From: an uncultured Acidobacteriota bacterium
GTDB taxonomy: Bacteria; Acidobacteriota; Vicinamibacteria; Marinacidobacterales; Marinacidobacteraceae
Length of the DNA stretch: 39,365 nt
Assembly: GCA_964448205.1 (NCBI GenBank)
Contig: CAYUVU010000332.1
Coordinates: 1 to 39,365 of the forward strand
Direction of reading: 5' to 3'
In this document: positions 6,877 through 39,365 of the stretch, piece after piece
How the letters are laid out: every line of letters begins with the position of its first letter
Position numbering within the stretch: the first letter of the stretch is position 1
Position numbers and translations under genes: made by a program
The notes under the pieces: model-generated
What the model saw: only the letters and a program-made list of their open reading frames with translations
Databases searched by the model: none
Told to the model about the DNA's origin: nothing

Positions 6877-6912
6877 GGGCTCGCCGCCCCGCCACCAATC
6901 GGGTAGCGCGTA

Positions 6913-7078
6913 CGGCCTGGAACGCCGGCTTCAGCCGGCACAGCGGCCCGCAGGGCCGCGGGCGGTTCGTCGCTACCCTGGATGAATTGGCGCGCGCAGC
7001 GAAGCCACCCGGCACACGAGGTCCGTCCCGCCGCCGCCTGCGGCGGGCTGTGCCGGCTGAAGCCGGCGCTCCAAGCCG
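6913..7078. repeat. 166-bp REPIN/MITE-like element (copy 1)
   Basis: Inverted arms cggcctggaacgccggcttcagccggcacagc ... gctgtgccggctgaagccggcgctccaagccg, between convergent genes. Confidence 0.85.
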
Positions 7079-35678: not shown

Positions 35679-36164
35679 CTATCCGTTGGGGAACAGGAGC
35701 CGGCCGCTCCGGTTGGGCCCGGGCGCCTGCCGCCCCTGCCTGGCGGCCGCTTCCGAGGCGAGGGTATGGGCCCTTTCGTTTCCCGGGTGGCCGGCGTGAC
35801 CCGGGACCCACTCGAACCGAACCCCGGGCCGCCCGGCGCGCGCCGCGGCCAGCCGCCGCCACAGGTCGGCGTTCTTGACCGGGCGGCGGTTCGCCGTCTG
35901 CCAGCCGCGCCGGACCCAGGACGGAAGCCACTGGGTGATGCCCTTGACCACGTATTGACTGTCGCACAACACCGTGGCCGCGGCTCCTTCCGGCACCGCT
36001 TCCACCGCCCGGATGGCGGCGGTGAGCTCCATACGGTTGTTCGTGGTCTGCGGTTCACCCCCCGACAGGACCCGTTCCTCTCCGGCATCGGTCAGGATCA
36101 CCGCCGCCCACCCTCCCGGTCCGGGGTTGCCGAGGCAGGAACCGTCGCACGCGATCTGCAGCAT
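35679..36164 (-). CDS. rnhA: Ribonuclease HI
   Basis: DGSCLGNPGPGGW, TTNNRMEL, DSQYV, VKNADLW, WVPGHAGHPGNE. Confidence 0.95.
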   Translation of the reverse strand: MLQIACDGSCLGNPGPGGWAAVILTDAGEERVLSGGEPQTTNNRMELTAAIRAVEAVPEGAAATVLCDSQYVVKGITQWLPSWVRRGWQTANRRPVKNADLWRRLAAARAGRPGVRFEWVPGHAGHPGNERAHTLASEAAARQGRQAPGPNRSGRLLFPNG

Positions 36165-36204
36165 CCGCTCGGTATCCTACGTGGAGGTTCTGCCTCCCGT
36201 TCGA

Positions 36205-36762
36205 ATGTCCTGGATTCACATGGTTCCGCCCACCGCTCCCGAGGGGCAGGCGGGGCGGCTCGGGAAGCTCTATCGGCGCCATCGCCGGCCCGACGGACTG
36301 GTGGACAACATCCTGAGGGTGTCCAGCCTGAATCCCGAAGCGCTGGAGCACCACCTGTCCCTGTATGAACACCTCATGCGGGGCGAGTCGGGCCTGAGCC
36401 TCGCCGAACGGGAGCTGATCGCGGTCGCCGTTTCGGTGGTCAACGACTGCCACTATTGAATCGAGCATCACCGGAGGGGTCTTCTCCGGCTGACCCGGGA
36501 TCCCGAACTGGTGGATGCCCTGCGCCGTGACCCGGAGGGCTGTTCGCTCTCGCCCCGCCATCGCGCGCTCGCCGACTACGCCACCAAACTGGCGCGGACC
36601 CCGGGGAGCCTGGCGGAGGAAGATCTCGAGCCGCTCCGCCGGGTTGGACTCTCCGACCGCGACATCCACGACGCGTGCGCGGTGGCCTCCTACTACTGCT
36701 TCGTGAACCGCATGGCGAACGGCCTGGGGGTGGAGTTGGAGGAGGCGGCAACCGGCCGGTAG
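36205..36762 (+). CDS. AhpD/CMD-family peroxidase-related enzyme, probable selenoprotein (Sec at codon 85, TGA 36457-36459)
   Basis: LSLAERELIAVAVSVVNDCHY-TGA-IEHH continues in frame through RALADYATKL, DLEPLRRVGLSD, SYYCFVNRMANGLG. Confidence 0.85.
36468..36493 (+). promoter_or_regulatory. Candidate bacterial SECIS hairpin
   Basis: tca-ccggagg-GGTCT-tctccgg-c-tga; loop starts with G, 18 nt after the UGA. Confidence 0.7.
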
Positions 36763-36781
36763 CCCGGCCCTCCCGGGAGGT

Positions 36782-38716
36782 TCAGGGGCTGCCGGCGCCC
36801 TGCTGCACCGCGGCGTCGAGGCGTTCGAGTTCCTCGTAGAGGGCCGGCAGCCGGCCCTTCAGGTCCTCGTAGGTGGCCGTGACCTCGCGGGACCCCTCGC
36901 GGTCGCCGAAGAAGCCGGGCGCCGCCATCCGCGCTTCCAGGCTTTCGACGGCGGCCTCCGTGTCCGCGATCGCCTCGAACACCTCGCGCCATTCGCGCCG
37001 CAACTGGCGCAGCCGGTTCTTCCCGGGCGGCCGGCGCGCGCCGGCCTTGCCCGCCTGTTTCGCGCTTCGCTTCGGCCGTTTCGCCGCCGCCGGTGGGGAC
37101 GCGGGCGCCGCCGCCGCGTCGGGCTCCGGGGGGCTGACCCTTGCCAGGTAGTCCGAGTAGTTGCCCCAGTAGAGGGCCGCTCCGCCCCCGCCGATCGCGG
37201 CGACCCGGGTGGCCAGGGCATCCATGAAATAGCGGTCGTGGGCGACGAACACGATCGTGCCCTGGTAGTTCGAAAGGGCGTTCAGCAACGCCCGCTTCGC
37301 GTCGAGGTCGAGATGGTTGGTCGGCTCGTCGAGGAGGAGGAGGTTCGCGGGACGGAGGAACAGCCGGGCCAGCGCCAGCCGGCTCCGTTCGCCGCCGGAG
37401 AGGACCGCGGTCTTCTTCTCCACGGTGTCTCCCGAGAACAGGAACGCGCCCAGGATGTTGCGGATCTCCGGCAGCATGGCGAGCGGCGCCGCGTCGGCCA
37501 TGGTCTCGCGGACCGTCCGGCCGGGGTCGAGATCGTGCCGGTCCGGCCCGTAGTAGGCGATCCGGACGTTGTGGCCAAGCTCCCGCTGCCCGGAGTCCAG
37601 GCCTGCTTCCCCGGCGATCAGCCGGATGAGGGTGGATTTCCCGGCGCCGTTCCGCCCGACGAGCGCCAGGCGCTGGCCTCGCTCCACGACGAGGTCCACG
37701 CCGCGGAAGACCTCGTTCGTTCCGAAGGCCTTGGAGACCGCGGAGAGCGTCACCAGAACCCGCCCGGAACGCGGCGGATGCGGGAGGCGGAGGGCCACCC
37801 GCCGGGGCTCCGGCGGCACTTCGATCCGCTCGATCTTCTCGAGCATGCGGACCCGGCTCTGGACCTGCCGCGCCCGGCTGGCCTGGTAGCGGAACCGGTT
37901 GATGAAGCGTTCGGTCCGCTCGATCTCGGCGGCCTGCTCGGCGGCGCGCTTGCGCAGATCGGCGATTTCAGCGGCTCGCTGGGTCTCGTAGCGGCTGTAG
38001 GTGCCCGGGTAGTTGCCGAGCCGGCCCAGGCCGATCTCGGTGATCCGGGTCACCACGGAGTCGAGGAAGTACCGGTCGTGGGCGACCAGCACCAGGCCGC
38101 CGCGGTGACGGGCCAGGAAACCCAGCAACCAGGTGCGGGCTTCGATGTCCAGGTAGTTCGTGGGCTCGTCGAGCAGGACGAGGTCGTTCGCCTCGACCAG
38201 CAGCCTGGCGAGGGCGATGCGCATCTGCCAGCCCTGGCTGAAGGTCTCCACCGGGCGTTCCTGGTCCCCGGCCGCGAATCCCAGGCCGGAAAGGACCTCG
38301 CTGATGCGGGTGTCCATCTCGTACCCGCCGCGGCGCTGCCACTCCTCCTCCAGTTCGCCGTAGCGGGCGACGAGTTCGGGCTGGTCCGGGGCGCCCGCGA
38401 GCCGTTCCGCCACGTCCTCCTGTTCGCGCCGCAGCCGGAGCAGGTCGGCGAAAGCCGTGCGGACCTCCCCGGAAACGGTGCGGTCCTTGAGGCTCAGCCC
38501 CTCCTGGGGCAGGTAGCCGACGCGTTTCCGCTTGGCCAGCACGACCTTTCCGGCGTCGGGGCGCACCAGTCCCGCGAGGATCTTCAGGAGGGTGGTCTTG
38601 CCGGATCCGTTGGGTCCGACCAGTCCGACGCGGTCGCCGTCGCCAACCCGCCAGGAAACATCACGGAGCAGGACCTGTTCTCCGTAGGCCTTCGAGGCCT
38701 CGACGAGCTGGATCAT
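36782..38716 (-). CDS. ABC-F family ATP-binding protein
   Basis: Two ABC cassettes (GPNGSGKT, FSQGWQMR, LLDEPTN; GRNGAGKS, LSGGERSR, LLDEPTNHLD), inter-cassette linker, C-terminal coiled coil, no TM segments. Confidence 0.93.
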   Translation of the reverse strand: MIQLVEASKAYGEQVLLRDVSWRVGDGDRVGLVGPNGSGKTTLLKILAGLVRPDAGKVVLAKRKRVGYLPQEGLSLKDRTVSGEVRTAFADLLRLRREQEDVAERLAGAPDQPELVARYGELEEEWQRRGGYEMDTRISEVLSGLGFAAGDQERPVETFSQGWQMRIALARLLVEANDLVLLDEPTNYLDIEARTWLLGFLARHRGGLVLVAHDRYFLDSVVTRITEIGLGRLGNYPGTYSRYETQRAAEIADLRKRAAEQAAEIERTERFINRFRYQASRARQVQSRVRMLEKIERIEVPPEPRRVALRLPHPPRSGRVLVTLSAVSKAFGTNEVFRGVDLVVERGQRLALVGRNGAGKSTLIRLIAGEAGLDSGQRELGHNVRIAYYGPDRHDLDPGRTVRETMADAAPLAMLPEIRNILGAFLFSGDTVEKKTAVLSGGERSRLALARLFLRPANLLLLDEPTNHLDLDAKRALLNALSNYQGTIVFVAHDRYFMDALATRVAAIGGGGAALYWGNYSDYLARVSPPEPDAAAAPASPPAAAKRPKRSAKQAGKAGARRPPGKNRLRQLRREWREVFEAIADTEAAVESLEARMAAPGFFGDREGSREVTATYEDLKGRLPALYEELERLDAAVQQGAGSP

Positions 38717-38836
38717 GGTGGGGTTGGTGGCCGGGAACCGTATCGCGGGGACAGCCCACGGACGGTCGTTCGGGTTCCGGGCGGATACCGCCTCCAGCGA
38801 CTGAAGTCGGCGCGGGTTGGTCATAATGGGGAGTCC

Positions 38837-39365
38837 ATGTTCCGGAGCCTGAAGCCCCTTCTCTCGTGGCGGCTGCCGCTCGTTGCCGCGGTCGTGGTGT
38901 CTTCCGCCGGCGCCCGGACGCCGCAACAGGAGGCGGACGCCGGGATGAGCCGCGGGGTGGCGCTGCTCGAGCAGTTCCGGTTCTCGGACGCCGCCGCCGA
39001 GTTCGCGCGGGTGGTGGAGCTCCGGCCCGAGTCGGCGGCCGCCCACGTGAACCTGGGCATCGCCTGGTTCAACGAGCGCGATTTCCTCGCCGCCCGCGCT
39101 TCCTTCGCCCGGGCTCTCGATCTCGATCCCGGCGGACTCCACGCCCGCTACAACCTGGGTCTTGTCGAGAAGCTCGAGGGCAACACCGAGGCGGCGCTCG
39201 CCGCCTTCCGGCAGGTCGCCGCGGCCGACCCGGATGACGCGATGACGCAGTACTACCTGGGCGCCGCCTACGCCGCGGTCGGCCGTCTCGAGGAGGCGGA
39301 GGCCGCCCTGCGCACCGCCATCCAGCTCCAGCCGGAGCACGAGTCCGCGCACTTCAGCCTGGGGA
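38837..39365 (+). CDS. Secreted TPR-repeat protein (partial, runs off the window)
   Basis: Signal-like N-terminus then TPRs AHVNLGIAW, ARYNLGLV, TQYYLGAAY, AHFSLG; open to the window end. Confidence 0.85.
   Translation, partial: MFRSLKPLLSWRLPLVAAVVVSSAGARTPQQEADAGMSRGVALLEQFRFSDAAAEFARVVELRPESAAAHVNLGIAWFNERDFLAARASFARALDLDPGGLHARYNLGLVEKLEGNTEAALAAFRQVAAADPDDAMTQYYLGAAYAAVGRLEEAEAALRTAIQLQPEHESAHFSLG

Follow-up and report, generated by a model that had tools for sequence, protein, structure and literature searches.

The DNA considered here comprises positions 1 to 39,365 of contig CAYUVU010000332.1 (NCBI GenBank assembly GCA_964448205.1, forward strand; this whole stretch of 39,365 nucleotides is referred to below as the window). 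It comes from an uncultured Acidobacteriota bacterium of the class Vicinamibacteria, family Marinacidobacteraceae, and the gene discussed lies on its plus strand, where the conventional reading of the sequence presents it as two open reading frames (ORFs). In the ORF list obtained under translation table 11, an ORF of 161 amino acids (35974-36459) has the C-terminal end ...V-V-N-D-C-H-Y, and a second ORF of 83 amino acids (36511-36762), which starts at a GTG at 36511, follows in the same frame. When TGA is taken as selenocysteine (Sec, U), translation of 36205-36762 gives a single frame of 185 codons (Table 1) with TAG at 36760-36762 as its terminator, and U85 is the sole non-standard codon in it, standing in the context N80-D81-C82-H83-Y84-U85-I86-E87-H88-H89. 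A first-pass annotation, made from the sequence alone, had recognised the two ORFs as one frame interrupted by a single TGA between N-D-C-H-Y and I-E-H-H, and the translation into 185 residues bears this out. The ATG-initiated product opens with M-S-W-I, and a start of the form M/V-[SAP]-W-I is common to 29 of 30 orthologous loci; the match of locus L043 begins at residue 2, and its start codon is therefore not in the printed alignment. The two apparent ORFs are one intact gene, and on the strength of the sequence comparisons described below we consider it very probable that it encodes a Sec-decoded AhpD-like enzyme with the motif C82-H-Y-U85.

The behaviour of the TGA was followed in 41 genomes, namely the window's own and 40 relatives from the same order. 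A protein search of these genomes gave a match at E <= 1e-10 in 37 of the 41 and none at that threshold in G017, G021, G024 and G035, which are 86-96% complete. The unpublished genome G033 enters only three of the tallies given here, which without it become 36/40 for protein matches, 40/40 for selA and 40/40 for tRNA-Sec. The 30 best loci, one per genome from 30 genomes and including all 16 of the genus, were translated with TGA as U, and U occupies the identical codon in every one of them (30/30, and 16/16 within the genus) at identities from 99 down to 44%. The motif around it is C-H-Y-U-[I/L/M]-[E/K/V]-H-H in these loci, the orthologues are conserved on either side of the TGA, and the 14 residues after U (I-E-H-H-R-R-G-L-L-R-L-T-R-D) are among the most conserved. 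The TGA is not specific to the strain, since it stands at the same codon in orthologues across the order, and the putative Sec form is fixed in the order as sampled. More distant paralogues within the order also have C-x-x-U, in contexts such as C-H-Y-U-T-E-A-H and C-P-F-U-I-G-S-H. Genome G028 has five AhpD-like matches, three of them with TGA, and two of these lie about 1.2 kb apart; its paralogues include L088 (C4:1305304-1305810, plus strand) and L085 (C4:1307018-1307497, plus strand), and further Sec paralogues are L082-L084.

Cysteine takes the place of the TGA outside this set. A protein-database search gave 34 hits, of which 19 were aligned, and the column of U85 holds Cys in 16 of 16 full-length homologues. 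The proteins in that database were called under the standard code, so that full-length Sec forms cannot occur there. What the public calls do hold are halves of the orthologues: P0015 and P0017 end in ...CHY or ...CRY, and P0031 begins just past the TGA. An alignment of homologues for the alternation of Cys and TGA, which had been proposed as a check, thus yields both states at one site, with Cys in all the full-length homologues and TGA in all the orthologues, and the suspicion that the gene would be mis-annotated as two is confirmed by the public halves.

The stretch or its close relatives are present in sequencing runs of 12 studies, many of which are labelled sponge metagenome. Contigs of four runs from four studies have no difference listed at 36457-36459, though 21 differences are not shown; two of the four runs are RNA libraries, and X19 covers only 11 of 30 bins. 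A contig of 3980 nucleotides (nt) from an RNA library and one of 4474 nt from a DNA run each span the whole gene stretch.

Profile and structure comparisons were carried out with the read-through protein, in which Cys stood in for Sec. The protein matches the NCBIfam family TIGR01926, "peroxidase-related enzyme", with 145.7 bits against a cut-off of 81.8, over model positions 18-174 of 178. It also matches the Pfam domain CMD (PF02627) with 65.2 bits (cut-off 23, E 5.6e-18) and the AhpD core domain ahpD_dom (TIGR00778) with 47.9 bits (cut-off 27.8). The cut-offs of AhpD proper (TIGR00777, 20.1 bits vs 191.95) and of the AhpD_rel_CFYUT (seleno)protein family (NF041238, 46.7 bits vs 175) are not reached. 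By sequence, the nearest solved structure is that of Mlr4105 (3c1l, E 5.1e-30), followed by 2pfx, 2oyo, the D. radiodurans AhpD 6k40, and 2prr; these relatives share 32-35% identity with the protein over almost the full length, with E-values of 5e-30 to 8e-21 and template modelling (TM) scores of 0.84-0.90. An AF2 model built on alignment A1 is all-helical and consists of one domain (mean pLDDT 94.2), and Foldseek superimposes it on 3c1l and 6k40 with TM 0.86-0.90. In the two alignments printed, those with 3c1l and 2pfx, U85 aligns with the second Cys of C-x-x-C, which upholds the earlier placement of the TGA exactly where AhpD/CMD enzymes have CxxC..H. Residues E70 and C82 are almost invariant in alignment A1. 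According to PMC3141380, the proton relay of M. tuberculosis AhpD consists of Glu118, Cys130, His132, Cys133 and His137 and that of PA0269 of Glu36, Cys48, Tyr50, Cys51 and His55; Glu70, Cys82, Tyr84, the predicted Sec85 and His89 appear to fit this relay, as judged from their spacing without direct alignment to either protein. The protein is best described as an all-helical thiol/selenol oxidoreductase 185 residues long that belongs to the AhpD-like "peroxidase-related enzyme" family (TIGR01926, CMD fold). Two more remote likenesses were also seen, namely a weak match to the Pfam family PA26/sestrin (30.6 bits, cut-off 29.4) and a Foldseek match to human Sestrin2 with TM of about 0.7.

If the TGA is decoded as Sec, the genome should contain the machinery for it, as the first-pass annotation had also pointed out. 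The bin that represents the window's genome comprises 412 contigs, with a completeness of 89.5% and a contamination of 3.35%, and it contains selA, selB, selD and tRNA-Sec, all above their cut-offs. The selA match has 493 bits (contig C266), that of selB 300 bits, or 322 when neighbouring matches are included (contig C362), and that of selD 333 bits (contig C200, C200:1-756, minus strand, L001), the last of these running off the end of its contig. The selD frame carries a TGA of its own in ...S-H-G-A-G-U-A-C-K-L, and we take G-A-G-U-A-C-K to be the canonical site at which SelD proteins have either Sec or Cys. Two Rfam tRNA-Sec matches exceed the threshold, and ARAGORN calls both of them tRNA-SeC with the anticodon TCA. 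Of the 41 genomes, 40 gave a selA match, the exception being G033, which is 83% complete, and all 41 gave one for tRNA-Sec. No sampled genome keeps the TGA while being devoid of the Sec system, a combination that, it had been noted beforehand, would point to another recoding or split-gene mechanism.

Elsewhere TGA is an ordinary stop in this lineage. The ABC-F gene next to the selenoprotein gene has Pfam domains that match up to residue 653 of its 664, and its terminator is TGA. Orthologues L040, L047, L048 and L049 of the selenoprotein gene terminate that same gene at a TGA, directly after the ...L-E-[T/D] end of the match. These four loci thus use TGA twice, as the Sec codon and as the terminator, and serve as an internal control for context-dependent decoding; the frame of L039 also meets a TGA one codon beyond the end of its match. 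The stop usage of the long open frames in the window (TGA 36, TAG 17, TAA 1) was rejected as a test of the code, the DNA being GC-rich and many of the frames spurious, and it is because such counts are not usable that the Pfam-supported end of the ABC-F gene was relied upon.

Several other features of the Sec system in this genome were recorded. A second SelD-like match (C226:6-728, minus strand, 187.7 bits) has no stop and lies within an open frame of 1331 amino acids, which may be a fusion. The two tRNA-Sec genes, C346:15184-15276 on the minus strand (L016:1497-1593, 74.8 bits) and C295:20912-21005 on the plus strand (L017:1501-1598, 69.7 bits), differ from each other, with 76 of 98 aligned columns invariant. 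All 15 genus relatives have one tRNA-Sec copy of about 69.7 bits that resembles the C295 copy, and for this reason the C346 gene may be either a second selC or a gene from a co-binned organism, given the 3.35% contamination. An ARAGORN "tRNA-???" of 90 nt with the anticodon "tc" in the window (6896-6985, plus strand) was considered as a tRNA-Sec candidate and rejected: there is no Rfam tRNA there, the real genes are on other contigs, and the call is probably a false one in GC-rich DNA. Further TGA-bearing matches in the genome, each with one in-frame TGA, are an Rdx-family match (C297:2925-3131, minus strand) and two AhpC-TSA (peroxiredoxin) matches (C45:8108-8497, plus strand, and C114:4594-5043, minus strand), and these are candidate selenoproteins.

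Table 1. The proposed selenoprotein gene, its recoding features and its neighbours in the window
Feature	Coordinates	Strand	Basis
AhpD-like (TIGR01926, CMD fold) selenoprotein gene, complete	36205..36762	+	ATG start, 185 codons + TAG
In-frame UGA, codon 85, selenocysteine (inferred)	36457..36459	+	same codon in 30/30 orthologues; Cys in homologues
Active-site stretch Glu70-x11-Cys82-x-Tyr84-Sec85-x3-His89	36412..36471	+	translation; spacing as in the AhpD proton relay
SECIS-like hairpin within the coding sequence (codons H89-R-R-G-L-L-R95)	36471..36489	+	6-bp stem CCGGAG/CUCCGG, loop GGGUCUU
RNase H gene, flanking	35679..36164	-	
ABC-F ATPase gene, flanking	36782..39352	-	Pfam domains to residue 653 of 664; terminator TGA

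A candidate Sec insertion sequence (SECIS) follows the TGA within the coding sequence. The arms of this hairpin occupy 36471-36476 and 36484-36489 and enclose a loop at 36477-36483, so that the stem starts 11 nt past the TGA and the first G of the loop lies 18 nt downstream of the last base of the TGA; a possible G-U pair between 36477 and 36483 would shrink the loop to 5 nt. In codon-aligned segments of 72 nt from the 30 orthologues (29 distinct sequences), a helix of seven pairs (columns 24-30 with 36-42) is paired in 87.2% of cells, as compared with 29-69% for registers in which the 3' arm is displaced by 1-3 columns. Columns 30 and 36, which form the innermost pair, are synonymous third positions (Arg AGR, Leu CTN), and this pair is GC in 16 sequences, AU in 7, GU in 4 and some other combination in 2. 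When the seven paralogues are added to the 30 orthologues, a stem of 6 base pairs (bp) or more, with a G among the first two letters of a loop that begins 17-25 nt past the TGA, is present in 32 of the resulting 37 Sec forms. At least six different sequences are represented among these hairpins: the arms are ccggag/cuccgg in the window's family and, elsewhere, acggrg/cuccgu (with the loop CGGGN or AGGAU), gaccuc/gagguc, cgccgc/gcggcg and ggaggg/uccucc. The paralogue groups differ from one another in the sequence of the hairpin that follows the TGA, and in L082-L084 the stem is extended to about 15 pairs. Contigs of runs X18 and X7 differ from the window at 36477 (G>A) and 36483 (T>G), which leaves the loop-closing pair unpaired and gives the same AGA/CTG as in L025 and L028.

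A number of observations weigh against the reading of this locus as a Sec-decoded gene or limit what can be drawn from the evidence for it, and most of them concern the hairpin. The 71-nt fold in the window has a z of only -1.52, with 14 of 200 shuffles folding as well. Hairpins with at least 6 pairs, a loop of 3-9 nt starting 14-26 nt downstream and a G among the first two loop letters follow 15.5% (~16%) of all window positions and 113 of the 671 TGA triplets. The hairpin with a G-starting loop 18 nt downstream, reported from the sequence alone, is thus where it was said to be, but on its own it is not significant: the hairpin of a single sequence is not beyond chance, and it is the position of the TGA that stands out. 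The proposed search for SECIS covariation ended in a similarly mixed way, for the synonymous pair of columns 30-36 does covary, whereas covariation as a whole is modest, with only 2 of the 7 pairs altered in both members, a figure that 138 of 500 shuffles reach as well. Five of the 37 Sec forms (L042, L046, L047, L048 and L089) fail the 6-bp criterion and have a core of 4-5 bp only. The control with Cys forms is too small, with a hairpin in 0 of the 2 Cys loci that pass the motif filter (the filter excluded L070 and L072, and L073, L074, L076, L078, L079 and L080 are without the CxxC/U..H pattern), and in L075, which is a Cys form, the local fold is a different hairpin. When 36380-36580 was scanned against Rfam by E-value, three chance-level matches (E 5.9-8.6) and no SECIS family were returned. 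Moreover, the orthologues are kin, and the counts of 30/30 and 32/37 are not made of independent cases. At the level of the gene, neither of the flanking genes, which encode an RNase H and an ABC-F ATPase on the minus strand, is of the AhpC type, neither a promoter-like nor a terminator-like site came out of a scan of 35900-37000, and the origin of some contigs in RNA libraries is no proof that the gene is transcribed. Because the sequences are kin and the Cys control is too small, the hairpin is not taken as proof; it is consistent with a SECIS and adds to the case. The 185-residue selenoenzyme proposed in the first-pass annotation is supported by the family match, by the TGA in all the orthologous loci and by the Sec genes in the genome.

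The alternatives to Sec decoding concern the fate of the UGA. Sec decoding is never fully efficient, and it could be that the UGA mostly terminates, the locus being either a true split gene, with an 84-residue fragment and an independently started C-terminal protein, or one that gives the full-length product only when selenium is plentiful. The GTG at 36511 does open an ORF of 83 amino acids, and halves are called in other assemblies (P0015, P0017, P0031). However, such halves are the necessary product of standard-code calling, the break would fall inside the CxxC/CxxU active-site helix of what is modelled as one compact domain, and nowhere is the gene more conserved than in the 17 codons from the TGA to that GTG, which would not be so in an untranslated spacer; we regard this explanation as very unlikely. 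It is also highly improbable, in our estimation, that the UGA is read by a route other than Sec, be it through a near-cognate Trp or Cys tRNA or through a lineage-wide reassignment of TGA. Such a route is favoured by the fact that Cys at this position would yield a functional CxxC enzyme, as in the homologues. It is opposed by the use of TGA as an ordinary stop, both at the end of the ABC-F gene and at the end of four of the orthologues, by the presence and conservation of a complete Sec system, and by the recurrence of the hairpin in different sequences. In addition, a single base change would turn the TGA into a TGY codon for Cys, and all 30 loci nevertheless have TGA. Finally, a pseudogene or an assembly or sequencing error, in which the TGA would be a nonsense mutation that only this genome has and the gene would be dead, could be suspected from the fragmented state of the bin and from the splitting of the frame by standard gene calling, but this explanation, to which we give next to no credence, is effectively refuted by the conservation of the TGA at the same codon in the 30 orthologous loci, several of which come from assemblies of one to four contigs, together with that of the protein sequence on both of its flanks, and the contigs of the four independent studies mentioned above agree with the window at the TGA as far as their differences are listed.

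The architecture of the gene, the constancy of the TGA site, Cys in the homologues, the fold, the Sec genes and the recurrence of the hairpin are shown by the data. With Sec decoding as the preferred reading, the following scheme can be proposed, in which Sec insertion at UGA85, the substrate and the reductant are what we infer. At UGA85, SelB carrying Sec-tRNA(Sec) would bind the stem-loop that starts 11 nt downstream, and Sec would be inserted instead of translation being terminated, the tRNA having been charged via SelA with selenophosphate supplied by SelD. By homology, Sec85 would replace the second Cys of the AhpD CxxC and cycle with Cys82 between a selenol/thiol and a selenenyl-sulfide form, and Glu70, Tyr84 and His89, which have the spacing of the AhpD proton relay, may assist in this. 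The enzyme, again by homology, might either reduce peroxide directly or re-reduce an oxidised partner of the peroxiredoxin type.

The value of this reading lies mainly in annotation, since standard gene calling halves or drops the gene in this genome and in at least 29 related ones, and the correct reading adds a redox selenoenzyme to the lineage. Taken together, the AhpD-like enzyme, the Sec-containing SelD and the unverified TGA-bearing Rdx and peroxiredoxin hits suggest that these Acidobacteriota depend on selenium.

The protein can be compared with several known systems. It shares with M. tuberculosis AhpD (TIGR00777), the adaptor that reduces AhpC, the CMD fold and the Glu-x11-Cys-x-x-Cys-x3-His spacing; the third relay residue, however, is His in that protein and Tyr84 here, as in PA0269. 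It is not AhpD proper, because its TIGR00777 score falls far below the cut-off, because it has Tyr84 in place of His and because no ahpC adjoins its gene. Closer to it are the Cys-containing "peroxidase-related" proteins (3c1l, 2pfx, 2oyo, 2prr, 6k40), which have CxxC in the same helix in the printed alignments (3c1l, 2pfx) and differ in having Cys where the present gene has UGA, and hence no recoding signal.

A functional alternative is suggested by the CMD-fold debrominase Bmp8 (6ohj, 6ohi), which Foldseek matches with TM 0.78-0.79 at 19% identity, clearly below the peroxidase-related group, in a comparison of overall folds; the sequence search, with a limit of E <= 0.001, did not return Bmp8. 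Bmp8 acts by a thiol mechanism, which has an analogy in the deiodinases. A review classes Bmp8 as a homologue of CMD and as an enzyme that dehalogenates. The present protein could be imagined as a reductive dehalogenase that depends on its selenol, or as some other reductase of small molecules of the Bmp8 type, that acts on halogenated host metabolites, and if this were true, it would be the equivalent in bacteria of the Sec-dependent deiodinases. This idea draws on the fold match and on the sponge metagenome labels of the runs with close relatives, and we think it quite unlikely to be correct: the nearest relatives of the protein are "peroxidase-related" proteins, and the Sec orthologue is fixed across the whole order as sampled, genomes of 6-9 Mb among them, which speaks for a general housekeeping role.

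As far as the recoding signal is concerned, the hairpin presumably resembles the SECIS of the E. coli fdhF type, being located in the coding sequence soon after the UGA and having G and U in a small apical loop, which here contains GGUC; the stem is short, 6-7 bp, in which it differs from that type.

The closest known system is the AhpD-like selenoprotein family. The 2005 Sargasso Sea selenoproteome study (PMC1088965) introduced a selenoprotein family, new at the time, of 27 AhpD-like sequences with CxxU (COG2128) and describes stem-loops past the UGA with a G in a small apical loop. In the GOS analysis (PMC2398784), which counts 299 sequences and 902 homologues with Cys for it, "AhpD-like 1" ranks with the most abundant selenoprotein families of prokaryotes, and a table in a 2026 review (PMC13188914) has the entry "AhpD-like protein, TIGR01926, CxxU". 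The word "Acidobacteri" does not occur in the text of the two 2026 papers searched for it, PMC13188914 included, leaving aside their supplements and BSepDB, where the lineage may be listed. The present gene has every testable defining feature of the family, that is, TIGR01926 membership, CxxU, Cys homologues at the site and a stem-loop after the UGA with an apical G, and nothing essential sets it apart, its particulars being that it comes from Vicinamibacteria (Acidobacteriota) and that its predicted Sec form is fixed in the sampled order. Since the family is established, as are its motif and its SECIS arrangement, the gene raises no new question on recoding: it is a member of a known family and not a new kind of selenoprotein.

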